Shown here in pieces: positions 11,663 to 52,900 of a stretch of DNA of 64,000 bases. How positions within the stretch are numbered: the first letter of the stretch is position 1; every line of letters begins with the position of its first letter. Source of the stretch: an uncultured Ruminococcus sp. (GTDB lineage Bacteria > Bacillota > Clostridia > Oscillospirales > CAG-272); contig CADBKZ010000009.1 of NCBI GenBank assembly GCA_902795355.1, positions 352 to 64,351 on the forward strand. Reading direction: 5' to 3'. The notes beneath the pieces were generated by a model. It was not told the DNA's origin. It saw nothing but the letters and a program-made list of their open reading frames with translations, and did no database searches. The position numbers and the translations under genes are program-made.

Positions 11663-11690
11663 CGAAATGTTGCAATCGGTTGTTTTTGTT
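11652..11690 (+). terminator. Riboswitch expression-platform intrinsic terminator
   Basis: CCGGTTGCAA-acgaaatg-TTGCAATCGG (10 bp, one G-U) followed by TTGTTTTTGTTG. The 5' arm overlaps the aptamer 3' closing strand. Confidence 0.75.
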
Positions 11691-11715: not shown

Positions 11716-12609
11716 ATGAAAAAGTTTTTGAGCATGTTCAAAAGCGCGCCGAAAGGCAAAGTTGCCAAGTTGGCATACGCGTTTTTCGGAATCATTGTCA
11801 GCGGAGTGATACTGGTTGCGGCAACTACCTCCATGGCGTGGTTTTCCAACAATCAGAGAACCGATGCCAACGCATTGGAACTCAAATCGTTACAGAACGA
11901 TACCACGGCAAGGTATTCGGTTTATAAATGGGATTTTGAAGAAGGCAACATTGCCAATGGGCATGGCACCAATCTGGATAGTGAGTCCAACCCGCTGACG
12001 TTGGAAACCGGATTCTCCCTCAATACGCATGACGTGGTGTTCACCAGCGAAAACCTCTATAACCCCGCATTTGTCCGCATTGAGCTTACGGGAAGCAAAT
12101 ACGAGGGGAAGAGCGGATCGCTTACCGTTAATCTGATTCGTTCCGAAGAATACGACAGCAACGAAACCGTTCTGACCGAAACGCTTTCCAGCGTGGCGCA
12201 GTTTGCATGCACAACCGGGGCGGTTGCATATCTTGATAACGCGGAAACGGTCTATTCCACCGCGTACGGGTTGTTCTGCAACGCGGAAAACGGCAAGCTG
12301 AAAAACAGCGGTCCCTTTGTAAAAAAAGAGTTCACCACCTATGATGTGGAGGAAGAAGGCGGAAATCCCGTCTATTCCAATTTTGAAAAAGTCAACGAAT
12401 TGGAATTTTCCGTGTCCTATAACGCGGAAGACTGGACGGAAGACGGAAAGCTTTATATTTACCTTTGCGTTTGCTATGATGAGATTCTGGCGGAACTTGT
12501 GGCGCGTGGGAATACCGACTTTTCGGCATTTCTCGACCTTGGAACTTCCAAACCGATGACAAACGATCTTTCCGTGATCTACATTTCCTTTAACGAGCCG
12601 ACCCCGTAA
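11716..12609 (+). CDS. Uncharacterised secreted/membrane-anchored protein with a SipW/TasA-like N-terminal signal region
   Basis: RBS GGAAAGGGGAG. N-terminal Lys-rich segment, hydrophobic helix LAYAFFGIIVSGVILVAATTS, then MAWFSNNQRTDANALELKS. Lower G+C than neighbours. No recognisable catalytic motif. Confidence 0.7.
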   Translation: MKKFLSMFKSAPKGKVAKLAYAFFGIIVSGVILVAATTSMAWFSNNQRTDANALELKSLQNDTTARYSVYKWDFEEGNIANGHGTNLDSESNPLTLETGFSLNTHDVVFTSENLYNPAFVRIELTGSKYEGKSGSLTVNLIRSEEYDSNETVLTETLSSVAQFACTTGAVAYLDNAETVYSTAYGLFCNAENGKLKNSGPFVKKEFTTYDVEEEGGNPVYSNFEKVNELEFSVSYNAEDWTEDGKLYIYLCVCYDEILAELVARGNTDFSAFLDLGTSKPMTNDLSVIYISFNEPTP

Positions 12610-17222: not shown

Positions 17223-17296
17223 GCAGATGTAGCTCAATGGCAGAGCGTCCGCTTCCCAAGCCGAAAACGCGGGTTCGATTCCCGTCATCTGCTCCA
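17223..17296 (+). tRNA. tRNA-Gly (anticodon CCC), CCA encoded
   Basis: 74 nt. Acceptor GCAGATG/CATCTGC, D arm GCTC-AATGGCA-GAGC, anticodon loop TTCCCAA, T arm GCGGG-TTCGATT-CCCGT, discriminator U, CCA. One C-C mismatch in the anticodon stem. Confidence 0.85.
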
Positions 17297-24770: not shown

Positions 24771-26603
24771 TTACTCCACCGTAACGCTCTTGGCAAGATT
24801 GCGGGGGCGGTCGATGTCGCACCCGAGGAGCGACGCGGCTTCATATGCGATGCACTGAACGGCGAGAAGCGCGGAAAACACGGTTGCCGCGTTTGAGGAA
24901 ACGGGCAGGGAAATCAGTTCGTCGGCGGTTTCGCTTGGAACCGCGATGTCGCTCCGGCAGATCAGCGTGACCTGCGCGCCGCGACTGCGGACTTCCCGAA
25001 TGTTGCTTTCGGTTTTATCAAACAGGTCGCGCTCGGTGGAAATGGCGAGGACCGGCGTTCCGGCTTCCACCAGCGAAATGGTTCCGTGTTTCAGCTCGCC
25101 CGCGGCATACGCCTCGCAATGGATATACGAAATTTCTTTGAGTTTGAGCGCGGCTTCCATGGAGAGCGCGTAGTCGATCCCGCGGCCGATATAGAACACA
25201 TGCTCGTGGTTAATCAACCCGCGCGCCGCTTTGCGGTAGCGATCCTCGCGGGAGAGCATTTGCTCCATGGCGGCGGGAACGTCCCGCAAAAGGCAATTCA
25301 CGGCCTCGCGGGCTTTTTCGTCGGTCAGCCGTCCGGCGGCGTGCGCCATTGCCAGCGCGATCATCCAAAGCACCGAAGCCTGCGTGCAATAGCCCTTGGT
25401 GGTGGCAACGGCAATTTCGGGACCGGCATAGGTATAAACGCGGCGGTCGGCCTCGCGGGCAATGGTGGTTTCCACGGCGTTCACAATGGCGAGCGTGGGA
25501 ATCCCTTGCTCTTTGGCATAGCGGAGCGCGGCAAGGCTATCGGCCGTCTCCCCGCTCTGCGAGATCACCACGACCAGCGTCCCCTCGGACATAACGGGGG
25601 GATGATAGCGATATTCGGAAGCGATATGCACCGTGGTGGGAACTTTCGCGTAATCCTCGATCAGCCGTTGCCCCAAAAGCCCCGCGTGCATGGCGGAGCC
25701 GCAGGCGACCACCTGAATATGCCGGACGGACCGCCAGAAGTCGGCGTTAATGCCGTCCGCCGAAAAATCGGGCAACCCCTTGGAATTGACGCGCGGCGAG
25801 ACCGATTTGACCACCGCGGCGGGCTGTTCGTGGATCTCTTTGAGCATGAAATGCGCGAAGCCGCCTTTCTGCGCGGATTCGGGCGTCATGGTGGTGGTTT
25901 TCCACTCGGGCGGGAAGCGCGTTCCGTCCGCGGGGCAGATGCTGACGCCGTCCGGCAGGAGGCAGGCGATTTCATCCTCTTTCAAGGCGCAGTATTCTCG
26001 GGTGAAGGGCAGAAGCGCGGTCATATCGGATGCGAGGTAAAAGCCGTCTCTGCCGCGCGCGAGGATCAGCGGGCTTCCGCGGCGGATCACGTAGACCTCG
26101 CCTTCGCGCCCGTCGAACAGAATGGCGAACGCGAACGCGCCGCGCATGCGGGCGGCTGCTTTCCGGATGGCCGCAACCGGCTCGCGCTCGGCGGCGTAGC
26201 AATCGTTGATCAGAGCCGCGGCAACCTCGGTGTCGGTTTCGGAGAGAAAGACCGCGCCCTTTCCGAGCAGTTCCGAGCGAAGCTCCTTGTAGTTTTCGAT
26301 AATGCCGTTGTGAACAAGAACGACCTTGCCCGCGCGGTGTGGGTGCGCGTTTTCGTCGGACGGCCCGCCGTGCGTTGCCCAACGGGTATGCCCGATGGCG
26401 CAGCGACTGTCCTCAATGGGCTCGTCGCGCAGTTTCTCTTCCAACGCGCCGATGCGCCCCTTGCATTTTACAATCTCGGTTCCGTTCTTCCGCTGCGCCG
26501 CAACGCCGACCGAATCGTAGCCGCGGTATTCAAGCACCGAAAGACCTTTCATCATTTTCGGAATCGCGTTCGCGCTTCCCGTGTAGCCGATAATTCCGCA
26601 CAT
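24771..26603 (-). CDS. glmS: Glutamine--fructose-6-phosphate aminotransferase (isomerising)
   Basis: Start MCGIIGYTGS (Cys2 nucleophile). Two SIS domains. C-terminal AKSVTVE. Confidence 0.95.
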   Translation of the reverse strand: MCGIIGYTGSANAIPKMMKGLSVLEYRGYDSVGVAAQRKNGTEIVKCKGRIGALEEKLRDEPIEDSRCAIGHTRWATHGGPSDENAHPHRAGKVVLVHNGIIENYKELRSELLGKGAVFLSETDTEVAAALINDCYAAEREPVAAIRKAAARMRGAFAFAILFDGREGEVYVIRRGSPLILARGRDGFYLASDMTALLPFTREYCALKEDEIACLLPDGVSICPADGTRFPPEWKTTTMTPESAQKGGFAHFMLKEIHEQPAAVVKSVSPRVNSKGLPDFSADGINADFWRSVRHIQVVACGSAMHAGLLGQRLIEDYAKVPTTVHIASEYRYHPPVMSEGTLVVVISQSGETADSLAALRYAKEQGIPTLAIVNAVETTIAREADRRVYTYAGPEIAVATTKGYCTQASVLWMIALAMAHAAGRLTDEKAREAVNCLLRDVPAAMEQMLSREDRYRKAARGLINHEHVFYIGRGIDYALSMEAALKLKEISYIHCEAYAAGELKHGTISLVEAGTPVLAISTERDLFDKTESNIREVRSRGAQVTLICRSDIAVPSETADELISLPVSSNAATVFSALLAVQCIAYEAASLLGCDIDRPRNLAKSVTVE

Positions 26604-26659
26604 GTTCGTTTTTCCCCTGTTCGGGCAGTTTCTTTCCGCCCGCCTTTCCGATGATGTAG

Positions 26660-26846
26660 AAAAAAGTGCAACCGGAAAAGACCGTTCCGGAAGAACGGTT
26701 TTTCGGTTGAACAGGGGTTGTTTTGCGGTTGCCCGCATATTTGAACCTGTTTTAACGATCGGGGGTTCCGACCGGAGAAGCATCCGCCGAATTTTCGATC
26801 ACTTCTCGCCTCGTCAACCGCGCCCGAGGGGCGCGGTCTGGCGCTA
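26660..26846 (-). ncRNA. glmS ribozyme (GlcN6P-dependent self-cleaving leader)
   Basis: Minus strand: AGCGCCAGACCGCGCCCCUCGGGCGCGGUUGACGAGGCGAGAAGUGAUCGAAAAUUCGGCGGAUGCUUCUCCGGUCGG... This matches the conserved core (AGCGCCAGA, GACGAGG, AUCGAAnnUUCGGCGGAUGC). The 3' boundary is approximate. Confidence 0.9.
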
Positions 26847-26983
26847 TTATCACCCGAATTTGCGGGGAACGGCGGTTACCCGCCCCATGCCTGCCGCCGT
26901 TCGTTCGCGGGCAAGGGGCTTTTTTGATTTTGCAAAACGCGGCGCGCTTTGCGAAAACACAGGAAACGCGAGCCGACGGCGGC

Positions 26984-31808: not shown

Positions 31809-32663
31809 TTATTTCCCGTGTGCGTCAACAGCCGCTCCGATTGTTTGGAACACAAAAAACGCGGCAATGTCGGCAACCACAACGGTTGGGCCGACGGGCG
31901 TTCCCCAAAGAATGGAGATCAAAATTCCGAGAGCGGCGCAGAACACCGAGAGAACTGCCGAGCAGATTGTTACCGACCGGAAATTTCTGAACACGCGCAT
32001 GGCGGAAAGCGCGGGAAAAATGATCAGCGCCGAAATCAGCAGTGAACCGACGAGATTCATGGCGAGAACAATAACAACCGAGATGATAACCGCAATGATG
32101 AAATGATAGGCATTCGCGTTGGTTCCTGTAGCCTTGGCAAAGGTTTCGTCAAACGTAACGGCAAAAATCTTATGGTAGAAAAGTATGAAAACCAAAATCA
32201 CCGCAACGGAAAGCCCCGCGCATAACCATACGTCAACGCGCGAAAGCGTTAAAATAGAGGTGGATCCGAACAGGGTGGTGCAAACGTCGGCCGAAATGTT
32301 GGAAGAGGTGGGAAACAGGTTCATCAGGAGATAACCGAACGCCAGCGCTCCTACCGAGATCATGGCAATGGCGGCATCGCCCTTGATTTTTGCATTTTGC
32401 CCTGTTTTCAAAAGCAGAACGGCGCAGAGAACGGTAACGGGCATAATCAAAACCATCCGGTTGGTCAAGCCGACAACCGCCGCCACAGCCATGGCTCCGA
32501 ACGCCACATGTGAAAGTCCGTCTCCGATAAACGAAAACCGTTTCAGCACCAATGTTACCCCGAGCAGAGAAGAACAAAGCGCAATGAGAACTCCGACGAT
32601 GAAAGCATACTTTACAAACGGAAATCGAAAGTAAAACTGTAACTTTTCAAAAATTTCAGTCAT
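31809..32663 (-). CDS. znuB: Metal (zinc/manganese) ABC transporter permease
   Basis: Start MTEIFEKLQFYFRFPFVKYAF, derived by codon arithmetic from the ORF track. ABC-3 family TM pattern. Confidence 0.85.
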   Translation of the reverse strand: MTEIFEKLQFYFRFPFVKYAFIVGVLIALCSSLLGVTLVLKRFSFIGDGLSHVAFGAMAVAAVVGLTNRMVLIMPVTVLCAVLLLKTGQNAKIKGDAAIAMISVGALAFGYLLMNLFPTSSNISADVCTTLFGSTSILTLSRVDVWLCAGLSVAVILVFILFYHKIFAVTFDETFAKATGTNANAYHFIIAVIISVVIVLAMNLVGSLLISALIIFPALSAMRVFRNFRSVTICSAVLSVFCAALGILISILWGTPVGPTVVVADIAAFFVFQTIGAAVDAHGK

Positions 32664-33366
32664 AATTGGCGCCCCCGTTTCCGAAAAAACGTTTTCCTGC
32701 CGCTCCGGCGAGATATTCCGTTTTTCTTCCGAAGAACACGGATTCGCCGATTTGCAGAATTTTATCGGCATACCGGATTGCGGCGGAAAGATCATGCGAG
32801 ATCATTACAATTGTTGTTCCGCCGCGGTTCAACCGTTCAATCAACCCGTACATTTCTTCGGTAGCGTTCGGGTCGAGGCCGGAAACAGGTTCGTCCAAAA
32901 GCAGAATTTTTCGGGTTGCGCAAAGCGCTCTTGCCAGCAAAACCCGTTGCTGCTGCCCGCCGGAAAGCGTTCGGTAGGAGCGTTTCTCAAATCCCGACAT
33001 TCCCATTTTTTCAAGGTTACATCTTGCAAGTTCTTTTTCCTCTTTCCGGAAAAACGGGCGCAGGCCGACATGCGGCAGGCATCCGGAAAGAACCACTTCC
33101 CAAACGGAAGCGGGAAAATCCTTTTGCACCACCGTTTGCTGCGGGAGATACCCGATCTCGTTTCCTTTCAGCCCATCTCCGGTAACGATTTCTCCCGAGA
33201 GGGGTTTCAACAATCCCAGAACGGTTTTCATCAGAGTGGACTTTCCCGCGCCGTTTTCCCCCACAATCGCAAGATAGTCGCCGCTGTCGATCTCAAACGA
33301 AAGGTCTTTTACAACCGCATGATTTTCATAGCCGATCGATAAATGTCTGCACGAGAGTTGAGCCAT
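32656..33366 (-). CDS. znuC: Metal ABC transporter ATP-binding protein
   Basis: Walker A GENGAGKST, signature LSGGQQQR, Walker B LLLDEP. Confidence 0.9.
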   Translation of the reverse strand: MAQLSCRHLSIGYENHAVVKDLSFEIDSGDYLAIVGENGAGKSTLMKTVLGLLKPLSGEIVTGDGLKGNEIGYLPQQTVVQKDFPASVWEVVLSGCLPHVGLRPFFRKEEKELARCNLEKMGMSGFEKRSYRTLSGGQQQRVLLARALCATRKILLLDEPVSGLDPNATEEMYGLIERLNRGGTTIVMISHDLSAAIRYADKILQIGESVFFGRKTEYLAGAAGKRFFGNGGANYD

Positions 33367-33378
33367 GGCGTCGTCCCC

Positions 33379-34365
33379 TTATCCGAGCGCTTCTTTCAGA
33401 ACTGCAAGATTTTCTTCCATTACATGAAGATAGGTTCTGCCCTCGTCGTACTCTTTTGAGGTTGCAGACTGCAGGGAATCCATCGTCAGTATTTTTTGGT
33501 TTTTCGCAGCGGTATTCTCCTTGATGGTTTGCGCAATTTTTCCATCCGAGCTCTCAATTTTCAAAATGGCGTTCAACCCAAGTTCATCTGTTTTTTCGGA
33601 CAGAAATACAACGGTTTCAAAGCTCGCTTCCGTTTCGGCCGAGCAACCTACAAACGCGGCGTAATAACTGATGCCGTAATCGTCAACGAGATAGCGAAAG
33701 GGAAACCTGTCGCCGAAGAGAACCGTTTTTTTGCCTGCGGACGCAACCGTCTGCCCGTATTTTTCATCCAAGGCGGAAAGCTCGGCGCAATAGGACGTTG
33801 CGGCTTCGGAATATGCCTCGGCGTTCTTTTGGTCAATTCTTCCGAGCGCGTTGGAAATTTCCCTTACAAAAATTTGAGAATTTTTCAGAGAGAGCCAGAC
33901 ATGTTCGTCGTATTCGGTCTCCTCTTCTTCCTCTCCTTCCTCTTCATGATCGTGTTCTTCCTCCATCCCTTCCACAATTTCCTCTTCTTTGGCTTTGTCG
34001 CCGAGGACTTCCAGAAGATTGATGACTTCCATGTCTTTGTTTGTTGCGTTTTTCAGCGCGTCGTCCACCCATTCGTCGGACTCGCCGCCGACATAGATAA
34101 ACAGATCGCAGAAAGAAATTTTTGCAATATCCGCAACGGTGGGCTGGTAGCTGTGCAGATCCGCGCCGCTATCCAACAGGAGCGTTACTTCCGCGCGGTC
34201 GTTTTGCCCGCCGAGTACATTCCGAACCCCATCGTACTCGGGAAAAATTGTTGTTACAATACTGATTTGTTCATTTTTTGCGTCCGTGTTTTTGCAGGCG
34301 GCGAGCATCATAACGCTACCCAACATGCAAATGGCAAGCAGAATTGCCGATATTTTGTTTTTCAT
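33379..34365 (-). CDS. znuA: Metal ABC transporter substrate-binding lipoprotein with an acidic/His-rich loop (ZnuA-type)
   Basis: MKNKISAILLAICMLGSVMMLAAC lipobox. EEEHDHEEEGEEEEETEYDEH loop is characteristic of zinc-specific cluster A-I SBPs. Confidence 0.85.
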   Translation of the reverse strand: MKNKISAILLAICMLGSVMMLAACKNTDAKNEQISIVTTIFPEYDGVRNVLGGQNDRAEVTLLLDSGADLHSYQPTVADIAKISFCDLFIYVGGESDEWVDDALKNATNKDMEVINLLEVLGDKAKEEEIVEGMEEEHDHEEEGEEEEETEYDEHVWLSLKNSQIFVREISNALGRIDQKNAEAYSEAATSYCAELSALDEKYGQTVASAGKKTVLFGDRFPFRYLVDDYGISYYAAFVGCSAETEASFETVVFLSEKTDELGLNAILKIESSDGKIAQTIKENTAAKNQKILTMDSLQSATSKEYDEGRTYLHVMEENLAVLKEALG

Positions 34366-34516
34366 AAGAACTAAAACCTCCGAATCAATAATTAATAATT
34401 GAACATGATTTTGAAAAGACAAAAAAAGACAAGGCAACCGCGTATTGATGAATACGCGAAAAGTCTATCCCCCCTGCGGGAGGACAGACTTATCCCTTGT
34501 TCATGTGTTTTTTATT

Positions 34517-34864: not shown

Positions 34865-34893
34865 ATTATATCACGGCGTTTTCGGTTTGTCAA
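34865..34893 (-). promoter_or_regulatory. Promoter of the small-protein/zinc-uptake operon
   Basis: Minus strand: TTGACA, 17 nt, TATAAT (perfect consensus). Confidence 0.6.
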
Positions 34894-34917: not shown

Positions 34918-35733
34918 TTATGTGCCGTACACCTGTTTCGCGTTTTCGGAGAGAATGGCGCGGCGTTCGGTGTTGGTCAGCGGAAGCTCAAAGAAAAATT
35001 CCAATTCCTTTTCGGGACTCCACATGGGGTAATCGGTCCCGAACAGAACGCGGTCAACGCCGTAGCGGCGGATCAACGCCGTTACGCGCTCGTGCGGGTC
35101 TCCGCTTTTCATAAACGGCATGGTGGAAGAGCAATCCACCCAAAGGTTCGGAATGCCCGCGAGTTGCTCCGCTGCCTCTTCCCAGATCGACCATCCCCCG
35201 AAATGCGCCCCCACGACCCGCAGCCGCGGAAACCGGCGCAGAACGGGCAGGAGACGGTTGGGGTTGGAATAATCGTAGCGGCTGTCCCCCGTGTGCATCA
35301 GAATGGGAAGGTCAAGCTCCTCGCAGAGCGCGTATGCGGGGAAGAACAGGGGGTCGTCGATGCGGTACTTCTGAATGTCGGGGTGAATTTTAATGCCGCG
35401 CAGACCCAGCCCGACCAAGCGGCGAATGTCGCCTTCCATATCGTCCGAGGCAGGGTGAATGGTCCCCAGCCCCGTCAGCTTTCCGTTCCCCTCGGCCACT
35501 TCCGCCGCGATGAACGCGTTGATGCTCCCCACCTGCTTCGGGGTGGTTGCCACCGATTGCACCACAAACCGATCCACGCCGGCGGCTCCCCCGCGCTCGG
35601 TCAGGTCGCGAACGGTCCCGCGGCCGTCGGCAACGGTGCTGTAAAACGCGTCGGTCCCCGCAACCGCTTTTTCGGCGATTTTCTCGGGGTAGATGTGGCA
35701 GTGCGCGTCCCAAATTTCAAATCCGTTCCGCAT
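34918..35733 (-). CDS. Amidohydrolase 2 family (TIM-barrel metal-dependent hydrolase)
   Basis: IWDAHCHIYPEKIA, ILMHTGD, GAHFGGW, LFGTDYPMW motifs. Confidence 0.75.
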   Translation of the reverse strand: MRNGFEIWDAHCHIYPEKIAEKAVAGTDAFYSTVADGRGTVRDLTERGGAAGVDRFVVQSVATTPKQVGSINAFIAAEVAEGNGKLTGLGTIHPASDDMEGDIRRLVGLGLRGIKIHPDIQKYRIDDPLFFPAYALCEELDLPILMHTGDSRYDYSNPNRLLPVLRRFPRLRVVGAHFGGWSIWEEAAEQLAGIPNLWVDCSSTMPFMKSGDPHERVTALIRRYGVDRVLFGTDYPMWSPEKELEFFFELPLTNTERRAILSENAKQVYGT

Positions 35734-38252
35734 TACGCCGTCACCACCTTGTCGGCCTTTTGCAGGCCCAATTTTTCAATCGCGTCCTTGCGCATCTGGT
35801 ATTTCAGAATTTTTCCCGCCGCGTTCATGGGGAACGACTCCACAAAGTCGATGTATTTCGGCACCTTATGCCGTGCCATGCTCGCCGCAATGAACGCGCG
35901 CATTTCGTCGGCGGACATCGTTTCTCCCTCTTTCAGGATTATGCAAGCCATAATCTCCTCGCCGTACTGCTCGTCGGGAACGCCGATCACCTGCACGTCG
36001 CTCACCTTGGGGTGCGTGTAGATGAACTCCTCGATCTCCTTGGGGTAAATGTTTTCGCCGCCGCGGATGATCATATCTTTGAGCCGACCTGTGATGCGGA
36101 AGTTGCCCTCGGGCGTGCGGCAGGCAAGGTCGCCGGTGTGGAGCCAGCCTTCCGCGTCAATGGCGGCGGCGGTGGCCTCGGGCATTTTGTAGTAGCCTTT
36201 CATAATGTTATAACCGCGCGCCACAAACTCGCCCGTGACCTCGTCCGGACAATCCTCTCCCGTTTCGGGATTGACGATCTTGCACTCGATTTCGGGCAGA
36301 GGACGACCCACGGTTCCGACGCGGACCTCGATGGGGTCGTCGGTGGAGCTCATGGTGCATCCCGGGGACGCCTCGGTCTGGCCGTACACAATGGTAATCT
36401 CGGTCATGTGCATTTTTTCCACCACATCGCGCATGGCGGAAATGGGGCAGGGGCTGCCCGCCATAATGCCGGTCCGCATATAGGAAAAATCGGTTTTCGG
36501 AAAATCGGGGTGGCCGAGCATGGCGATGAACATGGTGGGAACGCCGTGGAACGCCGTAATATGCTCGTTATGGATGCAGGCGAGCGCGGGCTTGGGCGAA
36601 AAATAGGGAAGCGGCAGGAGCGTGACCCCGTGGGTCATCGAGGCGGTCATGGCCAGCACCATGCCGAAGCAATGGAACATGGGAACCTGAATCATCATGC
36701 GGTCGGCGGTGGAAAGGTCCATGCGGTCGCCGATGCACTTGCCGTTGTTCACAATGTTGCGGTGGGTGAGCATAACCCCTTTCGGAAAGCCCGTGGTGCC
36801 CGAGGTGTACTGCATGTTGCAAACGTCGTCGGGGGTCACGGCGGCGGCCATACGGGCCACCGCTTCGGGCGGGACTTCGGAAGAACGGTCCAGCGCGTCC
36901 TTCCAAGTCAGGCATCCTTTTTGGGTAAACCCGACGGTAACGACATTGCGCAGGAACGGCAAACGCTTGCTGTGGAGCGGGTCGCCGGCCTTTTTGGCTT
37001 CCAGCTCGGGGCAAAGCTCGGCAACAATTCTGCCATAGTGCGTGTCCTTCGCGCCCTCGGTCATAATCAGCGTGTGCGTATCCGATTGGGAGAGCAGGTA
37101 TTCCACCTCGTGGATCTTATAGGCCGTGTTGACCGTTACCAGCACGGCTCCAAGCTTTACGGTTGCCCAAAAGGCGATGTACCATTGCGGAACGTTGGAA
37201 GCCCAGACCGCTACATGCGTTCCCGCCCTGACCCCCAGCGCAATGAGCGAGCGGGCAAAGGTGTCCACGTCGTCGCGGAACTCCGAGTAGGTGCGGGTAT
37301 AGTCCAGCGTGGTGTATTTGAAGGCGTATTGGTCGGGGTATTCTTCCACCATGCGGTCGAGTACGTCCGAAAACGTGCAGTCGATCAGCAGGTCCTTTTT
37401 CCAAATGAACGTTCCCGTGTGCGCGCGGTTCCAATAAAGGGCTTTTTCCCCGCGCGAGGGGTCGCCGAACTGCTTCATGTAGTTTGCGAACTGCGCAAGG
37501 ACGATCTCCATATCGTCCAGCTCGGGGCACCATGCGGGGTCCCAGACAAGGGAGAGAAAGCCGTCGTAGTTCACCGAGCGGAGCGCGAGCATGATTTCGG
37601 CAACGGGAAGTTCCCCCTCGCCGAGCAGGCAGGCTTCCACGCCATCCGCCGTGCGGCGCGCGTCGCTGATATGCACATGGCGGACATACGCGCCGAGGTT
37701 TTTGATTACCTCGCCCGCGCGTTCTCCCCCCTCGAACCAAGCGGCCGACATTTGCCAGAGCGCGCCGAGACGGTCGGTTGCGAACCGGCCGAGAAAATCG
37801 CGCAGGCGATCGGAACGGCAGAACAGCCCCGAAGTTTCTATCAGGAGCGAGACGCCGAGCGATTCGGCCTCGGGCAACTGCGCGGCAATCAGAGCGGCGG
37901 CGCGCTCGGCGGCGGCTTCGGCGTCCTCGGCTTCGGCGGCGCGCAGGCGGACGGCGGGAATATGGAACGCCGCGGCAACGCGCAGGCAATCGCGGAGTTC
38001 TTCCGCGGCGGCGGTCGGGTCGCCGGCAATGTCGGCAATTACGTCAACGGCGGGCAGGGAAAGCCGCTTTTCGTAAAGCTCGCGCAGGGTTGCGGAAGCC
38101 GTTTGGTCGCGGAAGGCGCTGTTGCGGTCGGTAAAGAGCGTTCCGCGAACGTTGTGAAGCTCAATGCCGTCCAGCTTCAGGTCGTTCGCCGCGGCGCAAA
38201 GCTCGGCAAAGGACGCATTGTGCCAACCCTTGGTGGAAAAGGAAAGTTTCAT
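35733..38252 (-). CDS. Fusion protein: N-terminal xylose isomerase-like TIM barrel (sugar phosphate isomerase/epimerase family) plus C-terminal AMP-dependent synthetase/ligase
   Basis: 839 aa. MKLSFSTKGWHNASFAELCAAANDLKLDGIELHNV (TIM barrel), then YTSGTTGFPKGVMLTHRNI, GYGQTE, TGDLA, RLKDMIIRGGENIYP (adenylate-forming enzyme core motifs). Confidence 0.85.
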   Translation of the reverse strand: MKLSFSTKGWHNASFAELCAAANDLKLDGIELHNVRGTLFTDRNSAFRDQTASATLRELYEKRLSLPAVDVIADIAGDPTAAAEELRDCLRVAAAFHIPAVRLRAAEAEDAEAAAERAAALIAAQLPEAESLGVSLLIETSGLFCRSDRLRDFLGRFATDRLGALWQMSAAWFEGGERAGEVIKNLGAYVRHVHISDARRTADGVEACLLGEGELPVAEIMLALRSVNYDGFLSLVWDPAWCPELDDMEIVLAQFANYMKQFGDPSRGEKALYWNRAHTGTFIWKKDLLIDCTFSDVLDRMVEEYPDQYAFKYTTLDYTRTYSEFRDDVDTFARSLIALGVRAGTHVAVWASNVPQWYIAFWATVKLGAVLVTVNTAYKIHEVEYLLSQSDTHTLIMTEGAKDTHYGRIVAELCPELEAKKAGDPLHSKRLPFLRNVVTVGFTQKGCLTWKDALDRSSEVPPEAVARMAAAVTPDDVCNMQYTSGTTGFPKGVMLTHRNIVNNGKCIGDRMDLSTADRMMIQVPMFHCFGMVLAMTASMTHGVTLLPLPYFSPKPALACIHNEHITAFHGVPTMFIAMLGHPDFPKTDFSYMRTGIMAGSPCPISAMRDVVEKMHMTEITIVYGQTEASPGCTMSSTDDPIEVRVGTVGRPLPEIECKIVNPETGEDCPDEVTGEFVARGYNIMKGYYKMPEATAAAIDAEGWLHTGDLACRTPEGNFRITGRLKDMIIRGGENIYPKEIEEFIYTHPKVSDVQVIGVPDEQYGEEIMACIILKEGETMSADEMRAFIAASMARHKVPKYIDFVESFPMNAAGKILKYQMRKDAIEKLGLQKADKVVTA

Positions 38253-39628
38253 GCCTGCTCCTCCTCATAAATGATTTTGTTCACCGCCGAGAGATAGGCG
38301 CGGATGGCGGCGCCGATGATGTCGGTGGAAATGCCGTTTCCGGCGTATACCCGCCCGTCCGAGCGCAGGCGAACCAGCGCGGAACCGAGCGCCTCGCGCC
38401 CTTCCGTTACCGATTGGATCTGAAAATCATCCAATTCATACCGGCGGCCAACCACCTGCTCGATGGCCGAGAACGCGGCGGCAACGGGACCGTCCCCAAT
38501 GCTGACGCCGGTGGAATTTTTTCCGTCCCGCGCCAACGTGATCTGCGCGCTGGCGGAAATGATGTTGCCGCTGTTGACGACATAGTTGACGAGCTGATAA
38601 GCCGACGGCACTTGCAGAGCGGTTCCCGCCACAATGGCGTCCAGCTCGCGCGCGCCGATCTGCTTTTTGGAAGCGGCGCGGAGAAATTCTTCGTAGACCT
38701 TTTTCTGATCCTCTTCGGAAAGGTCGTAGCCGAGCCGCGTTACGGCGGCGGCCACCGCCTGTTGGGAGTCGTTGCCGTCCAGAAGCAATTGCTCGTTTTC
38801 GGCGGGAGCGGCGGAAACGGCCGCGCGGGAATTATCGCTGACCCAGCGGATCTGCCGGACGATGCGCTGAATCTCTGTCAGCCGCAGGCGCGACGCGATG
38901 CCGTAGCGGTCGCCGCATTCGCGCAGAATGCCCGCAAAGGTTTCCAGCGGAACGGTGGAACCGTCCACGCAGGTTTTTACCACCGTTGCGCCGTGCCGAG
39001 CGGCAATCAGAGCCTCGGCGCAGGCGAGGCCGTTCCGGTTCTCGCAGCGGATGCCGAGCGGAACCGCGACCGACTTGGCAATGGGTTCCATAAAGTCGGC
39101 AAACTCGTCGGGGGCCATTTCGGCGGCGCTGTCGCAAATCGAAATCAGGTCGGCGCCCGCCTCGGCGGCGGCGCGGACCGCCGCCGCCAGAAATTCGGGT
39201 TCGGCACGCGTGGCGTCCACGGCGCAGAACTCCGCTTCCATCCCTTTCGCTTTTGCGGCGCGGACCGCTTCGGCGATCCATTCGAGCTGCTTGGCGGGCT
39301 TGCGGTGGGCAATGTATTCCATTCCGACGGGCGAGAGCGGAAGCTCGACGCGAATGCGCGGGCGAGCGGCCGCGGAGAGGGCCGCCGCGGCGTTTTCGAT
39401 GCTTTCGGGAGAGCTTCCCGCCGCCACCGACAGTACGCCGTTTTTCACAAAAGCGGACGCCGTGCGCACCAAAAGAATGTCCGCGCGGGCATTGGCAATT
39501 TCGGGAAGCTCGATGGCGTCAACGTTCAGGCGTTCGAGCCACCGCGCAATTTCAAGTTTTTCTTTGAAGCTGAATGTGCCGTTTTCGCGGCAGAGCGTTG
39601 TGTCGGCGATCCGGATTTGAGTGGACAT
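38249..39628 (-). CDS. 2-isopropylmalate synthase/homocitrate synthase-like protein with a degenerate catalytic site and an intact LeuA regulatory (dimer) domain
   Basis: IADTTLCRENG replaces the canonical DTTLRDGEQ, and IRCENRNGLACAEAL replaces HxHNDxG. The C-terminus GDGPVAAAFSAIEQVV...STDIIGAAIRAYLSAVNKI matches the LeuA allosteric domain. Confidence 0.75.
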   Translation of the reverse strand: MSTQIRIADTTLCRENGTFSFKEKLEIARWLERLNVDAIELPEIANARADILLVRTASAFVKNGVLSVAAGSSPESIENAAAALSAAARPRIRVELPLSPVGMEYIAHRKPAKQLEWIAEAVRAAKAKGMEAEFCAVDATRAEPEFLAAAVRAAAEAGADLISICDSAAEMAPDEFADFMEPIAKSVAVPLGIRCENRNGLACAEALIAARHGATVVKTCVDGSTVPLETFAGILRECGDRYGIASRLRLTEIQRIVRQIRWVSDNSRAAVSAAPAENEQLLLDGNDSQQAVAAAVTRLGYDLSEEDQKKVYEEFLRAASKKQIGARELDAIVAGTALQVPSAYQLVNYVVNSGNIISASAQITLARDGKNSTGVSIGDGPVAAAFSAIEQVVGRRYELDDFQIQSVTEGREALGSALVRLRSDGRVYAGNGISTDIIGAAIRAYLSAVNKIIYEEEQA

Positions 39629-39639
39629 GGTTTGAACTC

Positions 39640-39960
39640 CTTTCGATTGGGGAAACAGACACGGTTTTCGGATGAAAAAAGCCCCGACATCGGCGATTTA
39701 CCGATGTCGGGGACGAAATTGCAATTTCGCGGTACCACCCCGTTTACCGCCACGGCGGGCGGTCAACTCTTGCGGCTCGAACAAGCCGGTTGCCATGGTA
39801 ACGGGGCAGGCCGTGGCTGCTTACTTCGCCGCGAGGCGGTTCGGCGACCCTGCTACGGAACGAGACTTCCCATGCCCGCCGCGCCGTTTCGCACCAACCA
39901 ACGGCTCTCTGCTTCGGCTTTCGGCAAAGGAATAATTCCATCATCGCATTTGCGTGTGTT
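39640..39960 (-). promoter_or_regulatory. T-box leader (tRNA-sensing transcription attenuator), specifier probably CUC (Leu)
   Basis: Minus strand: K-turn-like GCGAUGAUGG, AG bulge GCAGAGAGCC, distal loop GGUGCGAAA, AGUAA box, F-box CCGUUA, T-box AAACGGGGUGGUACCGCG, then the terminator. Confidence 0.85.
39675..39714 (-). terminator. T-box leader terminator
   Basis: Minus strand: CCCCGACAUCGG-uaaaucg-CCGAUGUCGGGG followed by CUUUUUU. The 5' arm overlaps the antiterminator 3' strand. Confidence 0.85.
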
Positions 39961-39974
39961 TCCTTGTTGAAGTG

Positions 39975-40003
39975 ATTTTACCACAACTTTGCGGGTTTGT
40001 CAA
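39975..40003 (-). promoter_or_regulatory. Promoter of the T-box operon
   Basis: Minus strand: TTGACA, 17 nt, TAAAAT. Confidence 0.55.
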
Positions 40004-40028
40004 GGGGTTTTTGAAAAAAAGTGAAAAA

Positions 40029-40589
40029 TCAATTCAACGCCTCTGCGAGTTCCAACGGCAGCCGCCGCCGGATCAGCTGCGCCAACGCGAACGCAAGAGC
40101 CACCGAGGCAATGTCCTTGGGCAGAAACGGGAGCGACGCGCCTTTGACGGCCGCGGCGACCGAAATATGGTTGACAACCGCGAGCTGCAACGCCCCGCAA
40201 AGGTGGCAGAGCAGAAGCCCCGCAACGCCGAGCAGGATCCCGAACACCCACCGCAGAACACGATGGCGCAAGCGGCAGGCAAGGCCGCAGAAAAAGACCA
40301 TCAGCAGGAAACCGTAAATAAACCCGCCCGTGGGGCCCACAAGTTTGGCGAACCCGCCCTGCATGCCCGAGAAAACAGGCAAGCCGAGCGCGCCGATGAA
40401 AATGTAGACGCCGACGGCGCCGAGCCCGATCTTCCAACCGATTATAAAGCCGCAAAAGGCAACGGCAAAGGTTTGCAGCGTCATGGGAACGCCCAAAAAG
40501 TTGATCGGGATGGGAATAACGGTCAGTACGGCGATCATAGCGGCGAACAGGGCGGTAAAGGTGATTTTCAGGGTACGGGTGCGTTTCAT
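40029..40589 (-). CDS. bioY: Biotin transporter BioY (ECF S component)
   Basis: Start MKRTRTLKITFTALFAAMIAVLTVI. VPMTLQTFAV, GALGLPVFSG and GPTGGFIYGF are typical of BioY. Confidence 0.9.
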   Translation of the reverse strand: MKRTRTLKITFTALFAAMIAVLTVIPIPINFLGVPMTLQTFAVAFCGFIIGWKIGLGAVGVYIFIGALGLPVFSGMQGGFAKLVGPTGGFIYGFLLMVFFCGLACRLRHRVLRWVFGILLGVAGLLLCHLCGALQLAVVNHISVAAAVKGASLPFLPKDIASVALAFALAQLIRRRLPLELAEALN

Positions 40590-46049: not shown

Positions 46050-47240
46050 CTAAATCCTGCCGAGAAACTCCGTTAGCCGGCGGGCTGCTTCCTCGGTGTC
46101 GCTCGGGTCTCCGAACGTGGAAAAGCGGAAATACCCCTCGCCGCACGCGCCGAACCCCGCTCCCGGGGTTCCCACCACCTGAATGCGGTTCAGGAGCAGG
46201 TCGAAAAACGCCCAACTGCCGATGCCGTTGGGGCATTGCATCCAGATGTACGGCGCGTTTCTGCCGCCGGTATACCAAACGCCAACCTGATCCAGCGCGC
46301 GCATCAGAACCTTTGCGTTGTTCTTGTAAACGCGGATGTTCTCCGCGATCTGCGCCTGCCCTTCCTCGGTGAACACGGCCGCGCCCCCTCTTTGAATCAC
46401 ATAGGAAACGCCGTTGGTTTTGGTGGTGCGGTTCCGGACCCACATGGCGTTCAGATTCATGCCGCACCGCTCCAGCTCTTTCGGAATTACGGTGTAGCCG
46501 AGCCGCGTTCCGGTAAATCCCGCGGTTTTGGAAAGGGAACAGACCTCAATGGCGCAGGTCCGCGCGCCGTCAATCTCGAAAATGCTGTGCGGGAGCCGAT
46601 CTTCCTCGATGAACGCTTCATACGCCGCGTCAAAGAGGATGATCGCCCCGCGGCGGTTGGCATAATCCACCCATGCCCGCAGCTGTTCCCGATCGAACAC
46701 CGCGCCGGTGGGGTTGTTGGGCGAGCAGAGGTAAATCAGGTCGGCTTCCAAATTATCGGTTGGCAGGGGCAGAAACCCGTTTTCTTTTCCCGAGGGCAAA
46801 CGGACAATGTTCCGGCCCGCCATGGCGTTTGCATCCGCGTAGGCGGGGTAGGCGGGTTCCATAATCAGCGCGGCGTTGCTTCGGTCAAACAGGTCGAGCA
46901 AATCGCCGAGTTCGTCGCTGGCTCCGCTGGAAACAAACACTTCGTCGGGGGAAAGGGCAACGCCGCGCTTTGCGTAGTGTTTTGCAACGGCTTCCCGCAA
47001 AAAGGGCGCGCCGCATTCGGGCAGATAGCCGCGGAACGTTTCCTTGCTTGCCTGATCGTCCGCCGCGGCGTGCAGGGCGCGGACAACCGCGGGGCAAAGC
47101 GGCAGGGAAACGTCGCCGATCCCCATGCGGTAGAGCCGTTTTTCCGGATGATTTTCCAGATACGCTTTGGTTTTTTTCGCGATTCCCGCGAACAGGTAGG
47201 AGTCTTTCAGTTCGGCATAATGCCGGTTCGGTATCAGCAT
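46050..47240 (-). CDS. dapL: LL-diaminopimelate aminotransferase
   Basis: MLIPNRHYAELKDSYLFAGIAKKTKAYLENHPEKRLYRMGIGDVSLPL and SLSKTAGFTGTRLGY (PLP lysine region). Confidence 0.85.
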   Translation of the reverse strand: MLIPNRHYAELKDSYLFAGIAKKTKAYLENHPEKRLYRMGIGDVSLPLCPAVVRALHAAADDQASKETFRGYLPECGAPFLREAVAKHYAKRGVALSPDEVFVSSGASDELGDLLDLFDRSNAALIMEPAYPAYADANAMAGRNIVRLPSGKENGFLPLPTDNLEADLIYLCSPNNPTGAVFDREQLRAWVDYANRRGAIILFDAAYEAFIEEDRLPHSIFEIDGARTCAIEVCSLSKTAGFTGTRLGYTVIPKELERCGMNLNAMWVRNRTTKTNGVSYVIQRGGAAVFTEEGQAQIAENIRVYKNNAKVLMRALDQVGVWYTGGRNAPYIWMQCPNGIGSWAFFDLLLNRIQVVGTPGAGFGACGEGYFRFSTFGDPSDTEEAARRLTEFLGRI

Positions 47241-48025
47241 ACGGTTTCTCCCTCGTAAACAAATTCGGCGGGGCCGGACATGGAAACGGTTCCGTCCGGC
47301 CGGATCGTAACGGTCAGCGTTCCGCCGTCGAGCAGGACCGAAACGGGAACGCCCGCGGGGAACAACCTGCGGTCAACCGCCGCGGCAACCGACGCGCAAG
47401 CGCCCGTTCCGCAGGCCATGGTAATTCCGCTTCCGCGCTCCCAAACGCGCATACGTAATTGATTTTCGCTTGTTTTTTGAACAAACTCCACATTAACGCC
47501 GTTGGGAAACGCGGGGTGATGTTCCAGCGCGGGGCCGAGCCGATCCACCGGCGCGGCTTCCGCGTTTTCCGAAAAGACGACCGCATGCGGGTTGCCGACC
47601 GAAACGGGGGTGCAAACCACGGTTTCCGCGCCGACGGTCAGCGAAACCGCCCGCCCGACCTCGACGAACCCCATTTCCACCGAAACGGCGCGGACCCGCT
47701 TGCCGAGCAGATGCAGTTTCAGCGAACGCATGCCGGAGCGGGTCTCGATGCGCAGGTTCGTTTGGTCGGTGTAGCCCTTTTCATACACATATTTTCCAAC
47801 GCAGCGGATCCCGTTGCCGCACATCATGGCCTCGCTGCCGTCGGCGTTGAAAATCCGCATTCCGAAATCGGCCGCGTCGGACGGCGAAATGAAGATCATT
47901 CCGTCCGCCCCCGCGCCGAAATGGCGGTCGGAGAGCTTTCGGGAAAGCTCGGCAACGTTTTCGGGTGGCTCCCCGTAAACATATAAATAATCGTTTCCCA
48001 AGCCCTGCATTTTGGTAAAGCGCAT
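47234..48025 (-). CDS. dapF: Diaminopimelate epimerase
   Basis: MRFTKMQGLGNDYLYV. Catalytic Cys motifs MCGNGIRC and MACGTGACA. Confidence 0.92.
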   Translation of the reverse strand: MRFTKMQGLGNDYLYVYGEPPENVAELSRKLSDRHFGAGADGMIFISPSDAADFGMRIFNADGSEAMMCGNGIRCVGKYVYEKGYTDQTNLRIETRSGMRSLKLHLLGKRVRAVSVEMGFVEVGRAVSLTVGAETVVCTPVSVGNPHAVVFSENAEAAPVDRLGPALEHHPAFPNGVNVEFVQKTSENQLRMRVWERGSGITMACGTGACASVAAAVDRRLFPAGVPVSVLLDGGTLTVTIRPDGTVSMSGPAEFVYEGETVC

Positions 48026-48039
48026 GGCATTTTTCTCCT

Positions 48040-49497
48040 TTAACAGGTTGTGCGCGGCGGCGCAGTTGGATCTTGCTTTGATTTTGAAAGCGATAACTTT
48101 TGCTCAAAACGGTCTTTGCGCGTGTCGGTCGGGATTTTCGTAGGATAATCCCCGTTAAAGCATGCGCAGCAGTAACCGCCGTTTTCGGCAAGGTCGGCAA
48201 GGTTTTTCAAGGGCAGATACCCGAGCGAATCCGCGCCGATCGTTTTTGCGATCTCTTCATTGGTATGGCGGCAGGCGATCAGGTTTTCTTCGGAATCAAT
48301 GTCGGTTCCGTAATAGCAGGGGTGCAGGAACGGGGGTGAGGAGACCCGAACATGGACCTCTTTCGCGCCCGCTTCCCGCAGGAGCTTTACCACAAGCCCC
48401 ATCGTGTTGCCCCGCACAATCGAATCATCCACCAATACCACGCGTTTTCCCCGCACGCTTTCTTCCACGGCGGAGAGTTTGAGGCGAACGCTGTCGATCC
48501 GTTCGGTGGGGGCGGGGGCAATGAACGTGCGGCCGATGTATTTGTTTTTGATCAGCCCGATGCTGTAAGGAATTTTTGACTCGCGGCTGAAACCGAGCGC
48601 GGCGTCCAACCCCGAATCGGGCGCGCCGATCACCACATCGGCGTTCGCGGGACGCGCTTTTGCCAGTAATTCCCCCGCGCGGACACGCGAAGCCTGCACG
48701 GAAACGCCGTCGATCACCGAATCGGGCCGCGCAAAATAGATGTATTCAAATATACACAGCTTCTTTTCCCGTTTTTGGCAATGATCGCGGTTTGAAATAA
48801 TCCCGTCCCTGCCGAATACCAGAATTTCCCCCGGCTCAACATCCCGGATCGGCTCCGCGCCCACCGCGCGGAGCGCGCAGGATTCGGACGCGACCGCATA
48901 CACGCCGGACGGCGTTTTTCCGAAGCAAAGCGGGCGGAATCCATGGGGATCGCGGGCGCAGATCAGCTTTTGCGCCGACATCAGAATCAGGGAATACGCG
49001 CCGTCAAGGGTGTTCATGGCGCGATTCAACGCTTCCTCAATCGAGGGCGCTTTCAAGCGTTCCTTGGTGATGATATAGGCAATGGTTTCGGTGTCGCTCG
49101 TGGTGTGGAAGATGGCTCCGGAAAGTTCCAATTCGTTCCGCAACTCGGCGGCGTTGGAGAGATTGCCGTTATGCGCCAACGCCATGCGCCCTTTCTGATG
49201 GTTGACCTCGATGGGCTGGCAATTGCTGCGGTGATTGCCACCCGTAGTCCCGTAGCGCACGTGGCCGACCGCCATTTTCCCGCAGGGCATGCGGGAAAGC
49301 CGCTCTGCGGAAAAAACGTCGCCGACCAAGCCGAGATCCTTATGGGAAACGAACACACCGTCGTCGTTCACAACAATTCCGCAGCTCTCCTGTCCCCGAT
49401 GCTGCAACGCATAAAGGCCGTAATAGCAAATTCCCGCAACGTTCGTCTGCTTCGGCGCGATCACGCCGAAAACGCCGCATTCTTCATGAAGATCCAT
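48040..49497 (-). CDS. purF: Amidophosphoribosyltransferase
   Basis: MDLHEECGVFGV (processed Cys nucleophile), PRPP loop VVLVDDSIVRGNT, C-terminal Fe-S cysteines. Confidence 0.92.
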   Translation of the reverse strand: MDLHEECGVFGVIAPKQTNVAGICYYGLYALQHRGQESCGIVVNDDGVFVSHKDLGLVGDVFSAERLSRMPCGKMAVGHVRYGTTGGNHRSNCQPIEVNHQKGRMALAHNGNLSNAAELRNELELSGAIFHTTSDTETIAYIITKERLKAPSIEEALNRAMNTLDGAYSLILMSAQKLICARDPHGFRPLCFGKTPSGVYAVASESCALRAVGAEPIRDVEPGEILVFGRDGIISNRDHCQKREKKLCIFEYIYFARPDSVIDGVSVQASRVRAGELLAKARPANADVVIGAPDSGLDAALGFSRESKIPYSIGLIKNKYIGRTFIAPAPTERIDSVRLKLSAVEESVRGKRVVLVDDSIVRGNTMGLVVKLLREAGAKEVHVRVSSPPFLHPCYYGTDIDSEENLIACRHTNEEIAKTIGADSLGYLPLKNLADLAENGGYCCACFNGDYPTKIPTDTRKDRFEQKLSLSKSKQDPTAPPRTTC

Positions 49498-49527
49498 GTC
49501 GCCGCTTTCTCTCCTTGCGTTTTCCGT

Positions 49528-51111: not shown

Positions 51112-51144
51112 ACCGTAACTCCCGATTTTTTCCTTGTTGATTCG

Positions 51145-52869: not shown

Positions 52870-52900
52870 AAAGTATCACCTGATTTCTTTTTTTGTTTTT

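Follow-up and report, generated by a model that had tools for sequence, protein, structure and literature searches.

A T-box leader of predicted leucine specificity ahead of a conserved cassette headed by a putative LeuA-derived pseudoenzyme in uncultured gut Oscillospirales

A stretch of 64,000 nucleotides (nt) from an uncultured Ruminococcus sp. (contig CADBKZ010000009.1, positions 352 to 64,351 of the forward strand; hereafter the window) carries on its minus strand a T-box leader RNA that is followed by three closely packed genes. In the order of transcription these encode a LeuA-like protein, a fusion of a TIM barrel with an acyl-coenzyme A (CoA) ligase, and an amidohydrolase. As judged from the sequence, the leader is predicted to be a leucine-tRNA-gated attenuator that sits behind a strong promoter and controls three translationally coupled genes, and the cassette is a conserved, uncharacterised module of uncultured gut Oscillospirales. 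The proteins of the cassette carry only names such as “hypothetical” or “AMP-binding”, and a literature search found no paper that deals with the cassette or with genes of this kind under a T-box. A role for the cassette in leucine supply is likely. The overall reading that we favour, with slightly better than even confidence, is that it provides a leucine-specific arm of branched-chain-acid assimilation under the control of a tRNA-Leu T-box.

The leader occupies 39706..39953 (−) and comprises Stem I (K-turn, specifier loop, AG bulge and distal loop), Stem III, the T-box sequence and the antiterminator, as assigned by the Rfam family RF00230. In a scan of 39400-40400 under E-value thresholds, the match covers 39706-39953 (−) and the entire model (1-219 of 219) with 89.4 bits and an E-value of 6.5e-20. 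The curated gathering score of RF00230 is 93 bits, leaving the window leader 3.6 bits short, and it is therefore missed by a default Rfam scan and by routine annotation of this genome; a scan of the entire window at gathering thresholds reported no T-box, and only a glmS ribozyme, a tRNA and a cyclic di-GMP (c-di-GMP)-I riboswitch. The characteristic motifs are legible in the sequence, namely an AGAGA bulge, the distal loop GGUGCGAAA, CCGUUA, and the T-box sequence GGGUGGUACCGCG (39728..39740, −, by Rfam alignment and sequence reading). Stem I presents GAUGA, AGAGA, GGUGCGAAA and GAAGU-CUC-G ahead of the base stem UUCC, an arrangement that is kept in related leaders. The UGGU bulge at 39737-39734 pairs with the tRNA 3' end NCCA, indicating A as the discriminator base. 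The leader runs into an intrinsic terminator (39676..39712, −), the hairpin of which (39712..39682) has a 13-bp stem with nine G-C pairs and a loop of 5, followed by UUUUUU. The 3' part of the leader folds with −42.3 kcal/mol (z = −4.07 versus shuffles), and CCCCGA serves both as the 5' arm of the terminator and as the 3' strand of the antiterminator, the overlap that is expected of a T-box. A TG-extended sigma-70-type promoter, TTGACA-17-TAAAAT (39975..40003, −), matches the consensus at 11 of 12 positions and is predicted to drive the leader. An earlier note on this DNA had claimed a complete T-box leader with an AG bulge, a distal loop, the F-box CCGUUA and an overlapping antiterminator and terminator, and each of these elements lies where it had been placed.

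The amino acid to which the switch responds was called from a comparison of 76 leaders. The 3' side of the specifier loop in the window leader reads GAAGUCUCG, followed by the base stem UUCC. This gives CUC (Leu) as the specifier codon at 39862..39864 (−), with G as the conserved purine at 39861, and the Rfam alignment sets CUCG on the model positions “uuca”. All 72 leaders without the CUG form have CUC with a purine (A or G) after it, and the two bases that precede it vary (GU/GC/AU). Four leaders (loci L042, L046, L053 and L061) have GAAAUUCUGG in place of the CUC form, that is, CUG-G, and the Rfam alignments place the CUC-G of the window and the CUG-G of L046 on identical model positions. 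As CUC and CUG are both leucine codons, the switch is predicted to read tRNA-Leu, and the leucine specificity of this T-box can be regarded as almost certain. A GUC (Val) specifier was ruled out, since the G and U ahead of CUC vary (GC, AU), CUC plus purine does not, and Rfam aligns CUC/CUG to the codon. The CUC specifier would read the tRNA-Leu with the anticodon GAG. The strong constitutive promoter would fire continuously; with charged tRNA-Leu the terminator at 39712-39682 would form and transcription would stop, and uncharged tRNA-Leu, held on Stem I and the UGGU bulge, would allow the antiterminator to form and the three genes to be expressed. Within the 64 kb of the window there is no tRNA-Leu gene; a single tRNA-Gly(CCC) is found at 17223-17296 (+).

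Leaders of this kind recur ahead of orthologous genes. The 120 relatives listed for the first protein are 60-100 % identical to it and are called “hypothetical protein” wherever the source names them, and 80 loci were fetched from species-representative genomes for comparison. The cassette occurs in at least 539 such genomes, nearly all from uncultured Clostridia/Oscillospirales of the guts of ruminants and other animals. Of 83 leaders, 76 contain the core GGUGGUACCRCG, placed 70-190 nt ahead of the orthologous gene, and all 76 of 76 have a hairpin of −12 kcal/mol or lower directly ahead of a T-run. A near-consensus sigma-70 promoter is positioned just upstream of the T-box in every leader with enough upstream sequence (73/73), and 42 of these promoters are perfect. 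At the gathering threshold, RF00230 matches with 105-140 bits upstream of the orthologous gene in 21 related loci (19 of the 20 short loci, plus L014 and L065); in the 20th short locus the upstream sequence was too short. The conserved T-box core, terminator and promoter, together with these relatives above the cut-off, indicate that the window leader is a slightly divergent, G+C-richer member of a conserved orthologous leader set. The Rfam check that had been suggested for the T-box thus places the window leader, at 89.4 bits, just under the cut-off and the 21 homologous leaders tested well above it.

The three genes behind the leader are as the earlier note had described them, a LeuA-like protein, a TIM-barrel/ligase fusion and an amidohydrolase, and Pfam domains match all three. 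The first (38249..39628, −) encodes 459 amino acids (aa) with HMGL-like and LeuA_dimer domains. The second (35733..38252, −) encodes a fusion protein of 839 aa with AP_endonuc_2, AMP-binding and AMP-binding_C domains, and the third (34918..35733, −) an Amidohydro_2 metal-dependent hydrolase/decarboxylase-type enzyme of 271 aa (Pfam, 146.2 bits). The overlapping or abutting stop and start codons that had been pointed out at 38249-38252 and 35733 are borne out: the junction between the LeuA-like and fusion genes, GCATGAAA, contains a 4-nt ATGA overlap with GAGGAGG just before it, and the junction between the fusion and amidohydrolase genes, GCGTAATGCGG, a 1-nt overlap. From these junctions, the three genes appear to be translationally coupled. 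The order is conserved as well, the LeuA-like gene being followed by the fusion gene in 76 of 77 loci (the fusion gene of the remaining one, L034, is fragmented) and the fusion gene by the amidohydrolase gene in 56 of 60, so that the co-conservation of the three genes elsewhere is now documented. In L035, L050, L051 and L053 the sequence extends far enough past the fusion gene, yet no amidohydrolase gene follows, indicating that it is the least tightly linked of the three.

The 459-aa protein has the domains of a 2-isopropylmalate synthase, LeuA, with Pfam scores of 108.4 (HMGL-like) and 102.5 bits (LeuA_dimer). Its best NCBIfam LeuA score, 255.3 bits versus a cut-off of 532 (NF002086), is less than half of any LeuA equivalog cut-off, and it is also far under the cut-offs of all other LeuA, CimA and NifV models of NCBIfam. 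Alignment to the LeuA catalytic domains of solved structure reveals that DTTLRDGEQ has become DTTLCRENG in the window protein, that the catalytic Glu of the “ED” motif is replaced by Val, and that HxH reads RCE. Across 187 family members, the positions equivalent to the catalytic and metal-binding residues of LeuA vary (R/K/S/Q, V/L/I, R/K/S/L, D/E/S/N). Replacement of catalytic positions combined with their variability across the family is a signature of lost catalysis, and the protein is best described as a predicted LeuA-derived pseudoenzyme and not a functional LeuA, in agreement with the earlier description of a catalytically degenerate LeuA-like protein. The best-conserved part is the LeuA_dimer regulatory domain, with a column identity of 0.85 versus 0.70 for the barrel. 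The AlphaFold (AF2) model (predicted local distance difference test, pLDDT, 87.2) consists of a barrel and two beta-beta-beta-alpha units; it matches full-length Mycobacterium tuberculosis LeuA, including the leucine-bound structure 3FIG, with the barrel within 1.9-2.1 Å of LeuA catalytic domains. As the pseudo-LeuA keeps the domain by which LeuA senses leucine, a leucine-sensing regulatory or scaffold subunit is proposed, and its role as a leucine sensor is put forward tentatively.

The closeness of the barrel to LeuA catalytic domains might also be taken to mean that the protein has stayed catalytic, as a Claisen-type synthase or lyase whose site has been remodelled and is possibly based on cysteine, and that the cassette replaces part of the LeuA/LeuCD/LeuB chain elongation. 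Five Cys residues on the catalytic face of the barrel are 92-96 % conserved, and in principle an isomerase and a decarboxylase could be replaced by the barrel of the fusion protein together with the Amidohydro_2 enzyme. Against this, all five LeuA catalytic and metal positions are replaced and differ between members, the scores stay far below every LeuA, CimA and NifV equivalog cut-off, and the Cys residues become Leu, Val or Met in some members, which fits the lining of a pocket rather than catalysis or metal binding. Taken together, an active LeuA-like enzyme is very improbable. For the same Cys substitutions, an Fe-S or Cys-metal site was not proposed for this barrel.

In the fusion protein, the ligase is the part under the strongest constraint. 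All 120 best relatives of the 839-aa protein have the same fusion with lengths of 830-844 aa, and are named only “AMP-binding protein”, “AMP-dependent synthetase” or “fatty-acyl-CoA synthase”. The ligase domain (aa ~289-839; 35733..37388, −) belongs to the ANL superfamily (AMP-binding, 313.7 bits; AMP-binding_C, 64.3 bits). Its motifs are intact in the window protein (YTSGTTGFPKG, YGQTE, GWLHTGD, GRLKDMIIRGGENIYP, AGKILK), and the ANL core motifs are invariant in the 120 members (A3 TSGTTGxPKG, A5 YGxTE, A7 GWLHTGD, the A8 hinge and the A10 Lys). Identity in this domain is 77-91 % across the family, with a column identity of 0.90 versus 0.71 for the barrel. The nearest curated family is PRK12583, with 681.8 bits versus a cut-off of 832, and all other curated models are likewise under their cut-offs; the closest solved structures are feruloyl-, fatty-acyl-, malonyl- and oxalyl-CoA synthetases. 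A connection of PRK12583 or YngI to leucine catabolism was set aside, as a literature search for it yielded only reviews on surfactin in which yngI is mentioned. It was also observed that the ligase is 77-91 % identical between genomes in which the adjoining domains and proteins reach only 50-60 %, a constraint unusually strong for a CoA ligase, which hints at several interaction partners.

The N-terminal part of the fusion protein is a xylose-isomerase-like TIM barrel (aa 1-280; 37413..38252, −), recognised by Pfam AP_endonuc_2 (PF01261) with 61.6 bits versus a cut-off of 31.1. Its AF2 model (pLDDT 89.9) has a (beta/alpha)8 fold, and Foldseek aligns it with template modelling (TM) scores of 0.71-0.77 to ketose 3-epimerases, UlaE, Art22 and AsbF, at 13-21 % identity to solved members. 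An alignment to MJ1311, Art22, AsbF and 2zds reveals that E139 and H194 of the E-D-H-E metal site are kept, that Asp is replaced by N/Q167, and that the last Glu is V236. Transfer of a function to this barrel was rejected: sequence matches in the PDB are weak, a profile search returns Art22, MJ1311 and AsbF, and Foldseek returns generic epimerases and isomerases at 13-21 % identity. A literature search on Art22 found nothing relevant to the barrel. The metal site of the third protein, in contrast to the half-kept site of the barrel, is intact: H11, H13, K115, H117, H147, H177 and D234 are invariant in 46 Amidohydro_2 (PF04909) sequences, indicating a complete ligand set (HxH / His / His / Asp). 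The nearest solved structure of the amidohydrolase is the uncharacterised 3irs, followed by the decarboxylases ACMSD and LigW.

A link to leucine other than that of the specifier is found in the genomic context. Neighbouring open reading frames (ORFs) of all loci were clustered to find recurrent genes, and those non-redundant loci that reach at least 1.6 kb upstream, 63 in all, were taken as informative. A recurrent block on the same strand upstream comprises a ligase with helix-turn-helix (HTH), cupin and AMP-binding parts, a CbiA/MinD-like ATPase, a small ferredoxin, a VorB-type oxidoreductase (alpha, beta and gamma), and IlvE. The alpha subunit of the VorB-type 2-oxoisovalerate:ferredoxin oxidoreductase (VOR) scores 542 bits versus a cut-off of 399, and IlvE 484 bits versus 307. 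The ligase of the block has MbcS as its best NCBIfam match, under the family cut-off, and the cassette ligase is only ~24 % identical to this MbcS-like protein. VorABC and/or IlvE lie on the same strand within 3.5 kb upstream of the cassette in 36 of the 63 informative loci. In L001, L009, L034 and L082 the cassette starts 37-131 nt after IlvE or VorG and Rfam finds no T-box there, so that the cassette and the VOR/IlvE genes appear to form one operon in these loci. The view that no standard biosynthetic operon stands behind the T-box holds for the window, but in 36 of the 63 informative loci the cassette is the tail of a cluster leading from branched-chain acids to branched-chain amino acids. 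Among the minor recurrent neighbours, PrfC, a ComEC-like protein, aromatic amino-acid genes, AlaRS, MetY/MetA and BioY were judged to be clade synteny and not leucine genes; MetY (O-acetylhomoserine sulfhydrylase) and MetA stand on the same strand downstream of the cassette in 12-14 loci (L028, L058-L062, L068, L069, L074, L077, L080, L085).

Two proteins of the upstream block are unusual in their own right. The ligase at the head of the VorABC-IlvE operon is fused from three parts, an XRE-type HTH, a cupin and an MbcS-like synthetase, and is 730-764 aa long (+ strand; L001 211-2505, L012 20-2269, and ~25 other loci). A PuuR-like regulator that is fused to the enzyme is an unusual architecture, and it might serve autoregulation of the operon. 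A gene for a CbiA/MinD-like P-loop protein of ~220 aa is always located between the MbcS-like ligase and the ferredoxin/VOR genes (+ strand; L015 1546-2211, and 24 other loci). It has a weak match to Pfam CbiA and no NCBIfam match, and might encode a maturation factor.

The same context bears on the idea that the T-box is a relic of an ancestral T-box-leuA operon and that the cassette now serves other ends, its regulation by leucine being incidental; it might, for instance, activate fatty or aromatic acids that go into lipids, the envelope or secondary metabolism. In favour of this idea, the first gene clearly descends from a leuA, and Leu T-boxes are common upstream of leuA operons in Firmicutes; the best curated matches of the ligase are generic fatty-acid-CoA ligase families, and the genes around the cassette are unrelated both in the window and in 27 of 63 informative loci. 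Yet a relic would be expected to decay, and here the full-length T-box, Leu specifier, terminator and consensus promoter have been kept while the proteins diverged to 52-60 % identity; nor would the recurrent same-strand position behind VorABC-IlvE be expected of an unrelated function. The leucine T-box and this position likewise argue against an ordinary fatty-acid ligase, and the relic explanation is considered quite unlikely.

The favoured reading, a leucine-specific arm of branched-chain-acid assimilation, joins the leader to this gene context. The cassette would belong functionally with an operon that turns exogenous branched-chain fatty acids into branched-chain amino acids, as we infer from gene context in relatives. 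In that pathway, an MbcS-like synthetase would make the acyl-CoA, VorABC would carboxylate it reductively to the 2-oxo acid, and IlvE would transaminate this to the amino acid. The cassette ligase would activate a leucine-skeleton acid, most simply isovalerate, to its CoA thioester, which VOR and IlvE would convert to 2-oxoisocaproate and then to leucine, making the cassette the leucine-starvation-induced, leucine-specific arm of a shared pathway. With the shared VOR/IlvE genes upstream and the leucine-gated genes downstream behind a T-box of their own, the layout fits a leucine-specific substrate-entry step. The LeuA-derived pseudoenzyme, having kept its leucine-binding feedback domain, would sense leucine as a regulatory or scaffold subunit of the ligase, comparable to HisZ for HisG, and the fused barrel with its remodelled metal site and the amidohydrolase would probably serve to convert, or to release, some precursor of the acid that is activated. 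For the cassette, “salvage/supply” is favoured over “modification”.

Physiology offers some support for such a step. The MbcS of Staphylococcus aureus takes isobutyrate and 2-methylbutyrate, and isovalerate poorly (PMC10026030), which suggests the need for a separate leucine-skeleton ligase; this is a lead only, as the upstream ligase is MbcS-like and under the family cut-off. The carboxylation of isovalerate to leucine is an established rumen pathway (PMC7356843, which cites Allison 1962 and 1966). Isovalerate as the substrate of the cassette ligase is a tentative assignment.

Several points weigh against the leucine-specific arm as outlined. Plain activation of isovalerate needs a ligase alone, leaving the barrel and the amidohydrolase unexplained. 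The adjacent VOR block is absent from 27 of the 63 informative loci, and a search of the 64-kb window found no VOR, IlvE or MbcS-like gene, so that the link to the pathway is drawn from relatives. The ligase is under every family cut-off and its nearest families are generic (fatty-acid, feruloyl and malonyl-CoA), and its substrate is therefore not predictable. As for the pseudo-LeuA, no solved regulatory domain matched its sequence closely enough to map the residues of the leucine pocket, and leucine binding is presumed from the conservation of the domain.

The first of these points is addressed by the main rival, a multi-step route in which the leucine skeleton, as isovaleryl-CoA or 2-oxoisocaproate, would come not from free isovalerate but from another precursor, perhaps a conjugate or a hydroxy or dicarboxylic acid (3-hydroxy-3-methylglutarate, 3-methylglutaconate). 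Once the ligase had made the CoA ester, isomerisation or dehydration would fall to the barrel and decarboxylation or hydrolysis to the Amidohydro_2 enzyme; the product would enter VOR and IlvE, with a logic comparable to that of the myxobacterial alternative isovaleryl-CoA pathway. Such a route is consistent with the conservation of three catalytic-looking parts together and not of a ligase alone, with the intact ligands of the Amidohydro_2 enzyme, whose nearest characterised relatives, ACMSD and LigW, are non-oxidative decarboxylases, and with the enolisation-type isomerisations and dehydrations performed by xylose-isomerase-like barrels such as AsbF. Malonyl- and oxalyl-CoA synthetases also score well among the solved ligases, and the Leu T-box and the VOR/IlvE context would fit any route that ends in leucine. 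Set against this are the lack of a reductase or dehydrogenase conserved in the cassette, the loss of two of the four canonical metal ligands from the barrel, and the absence of the amidohydrolase from 4 of 60 loci; moreover, no structural or sequence match points to a particular substrate. This route is judged unlikely as a whole. A fuller version of the leucine-specific arm, in which the cassette would fill a long-standing gap, the leucine-specific genes by which Clostridia of the rumen and gut carboxylate isovalerate to leucine, the pseudo-LeuA, with only its leucine-feedback domain kept, would govern the barrel-fused ligase allosterically in the manner of HisZ within an enzyme complex of a new type, and the barrel and Amidohydro_2 enzyme would carry out undescribed steps on a leucine-skeleton precursor, is offered as a doubtful proposal.

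Apart from the cassette, the window contains features of less direct relevance. The cassette is flanked upstream by BioY and AraC and downstream by a zinc ABC transporter, and the rest of the window consists of housekeeping genes. Just past the stop codon of the amidohydrolase gene, at 34865-34893 (−), there is a perfect TG-extended promoter, TTGACA-17-TATAAT (12/12), which precedes a small ORF and genes for a ZnuA/AztABC-like zinc ABC transporter (31809-34437); no clear terminator was found between the cassette and this promoter. The glmS ribozyme/riboswitch (26699-26856, −; Rfam 83.9 bits, E 8e-18) lies directly upstream of the GlmS gene (SIS and GATase domains), and the GlmS ORF as called (24771-26783) overlaps it, indicating that the true start is further downstream. 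The c-di-GMP-I riboswitch (11588-11663, +; 59.2 bits) is situated ahead of ORFs 11716-12609 (297 aa) and 12664-16911 (1415 aa), both on the + strand; neither protein has a Pfam match at E ≤ 1e-5, and this may be a case of a large surface or adhesion protein, of no recognised family, under the control of c-di-GMP. A nitrogen-assimilation cluster at 46050-54997 (−) encodes a type III glutamine synthetase, an AmtB-P-II fusion (574 aa), an asparagine synthase, a PurF-like amidophosphoribosyltransferase and a class I/II aminotransferase.

The potential significance of the cassette derives from the physiology of the rumen. Branched-chain volatile fatty acids are classical growth factors of fibre-degrading rumen bacteria and are fed to cattle as “isoacids”, and the physiology of isovalerate-to-leucine carboxylation has been known since the 1960s, with its genes and regulation poorly defined. 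The cassette would provide a concrete candidate gene set, present in at least 539 species-level genomes, under predicted leucine-tRNA control and tied to VorABC-IlvE. It would also be a clean example of a biosynthetic enzyme, LeuA, that has turned pseudoenzyme with its effector-binding domain kept, and through it the T-box regulon gains a class of targets that had no annotation.

Comparison with known systems separates what is ordinary in this locus from what is new. Bacillus subtilis, for example, has Leu T-boxes with a CUC specifier ahead of leuS and of the ilv-leu operon. The window leader shares with the Leu T-boxes of Firmicutes the full architecture, CUC plus purine, a UGGN bulge, mutually exclusive antiterminator and terminator, and, as predicted here, transcription control by uncharged tRNA; unlike them, it controls a cassette that is headed by a dead LeuA and not a synthetase, a leu/ilv operon or a transporter. 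The leader RNA is thus an ordinary member of a well-known class, and what is new is the controlled cassette, which has no curated family and no informative names. The first protein resembles LeuA of M. tuberculosis (1SR9, and leucine-bound 3FIG) in its DRE-TIM (HMGL-like) barrel, linker and C-terminal regulatory domain of two beta-beta-beta-alpha units, and differs from it in that the Arg and Asp of RDGEQ, the catalytic Glu and the HxH ligands are replaced and variable. A precedent for its proposed role is found in HisZ-HisG(S), in which a catalytically dead paralogue of HisRS is the histidine-sensing regulatory subunit of ATP-phosphoribosyltransferase. The likeness is one of mechanism: a paralogue of a pathway enzyme that lacks catalysis keeps its amino-acid-binding part and is encoded beside the enzyme to be regulated; the protein families are unrelated, and for the pseudo-LeuA both the interaction and leucine binding are predictions.

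Among the enzymes, the PF01261 barrels (ketose 3-epimerases, UlaE, IolI/IolE, AsbF, Art22) have the fold of the cassette barrel, which keeps only the Glu and His and is fused to a ligase, and the PF04909 enzymes (ACMSD, LigW, LigI, 3irs) share both the fold and the full ligand set with the cassette amidohydrolase; from neither family can a substrate be carried over. Like MbcS of S. aureus (PMC10026030), the cassette ligase would be an ANL ligase that brings in exogenous short branched-chain acids as CoA esters; unlike MbcS, which feeds fatty-acid synthesis, it is nearest to PRK12583 and carries an N-terminal TIM barrel. The physiological isovalerate-to-leucine route does not need a LeuA-like protein, a barrel or an amidohydrolase, and the assignment of the cassette to it is provisional. 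The likeness to this route consists in its occurrence in rumen and hind-gut Clostridia, in relatives that hold an acyl-CoA ligase, a 2-oxoacid:ferredoxin oxidoreductase and a branched-chain aminotransferase, and in the predicted leucine-specific control.

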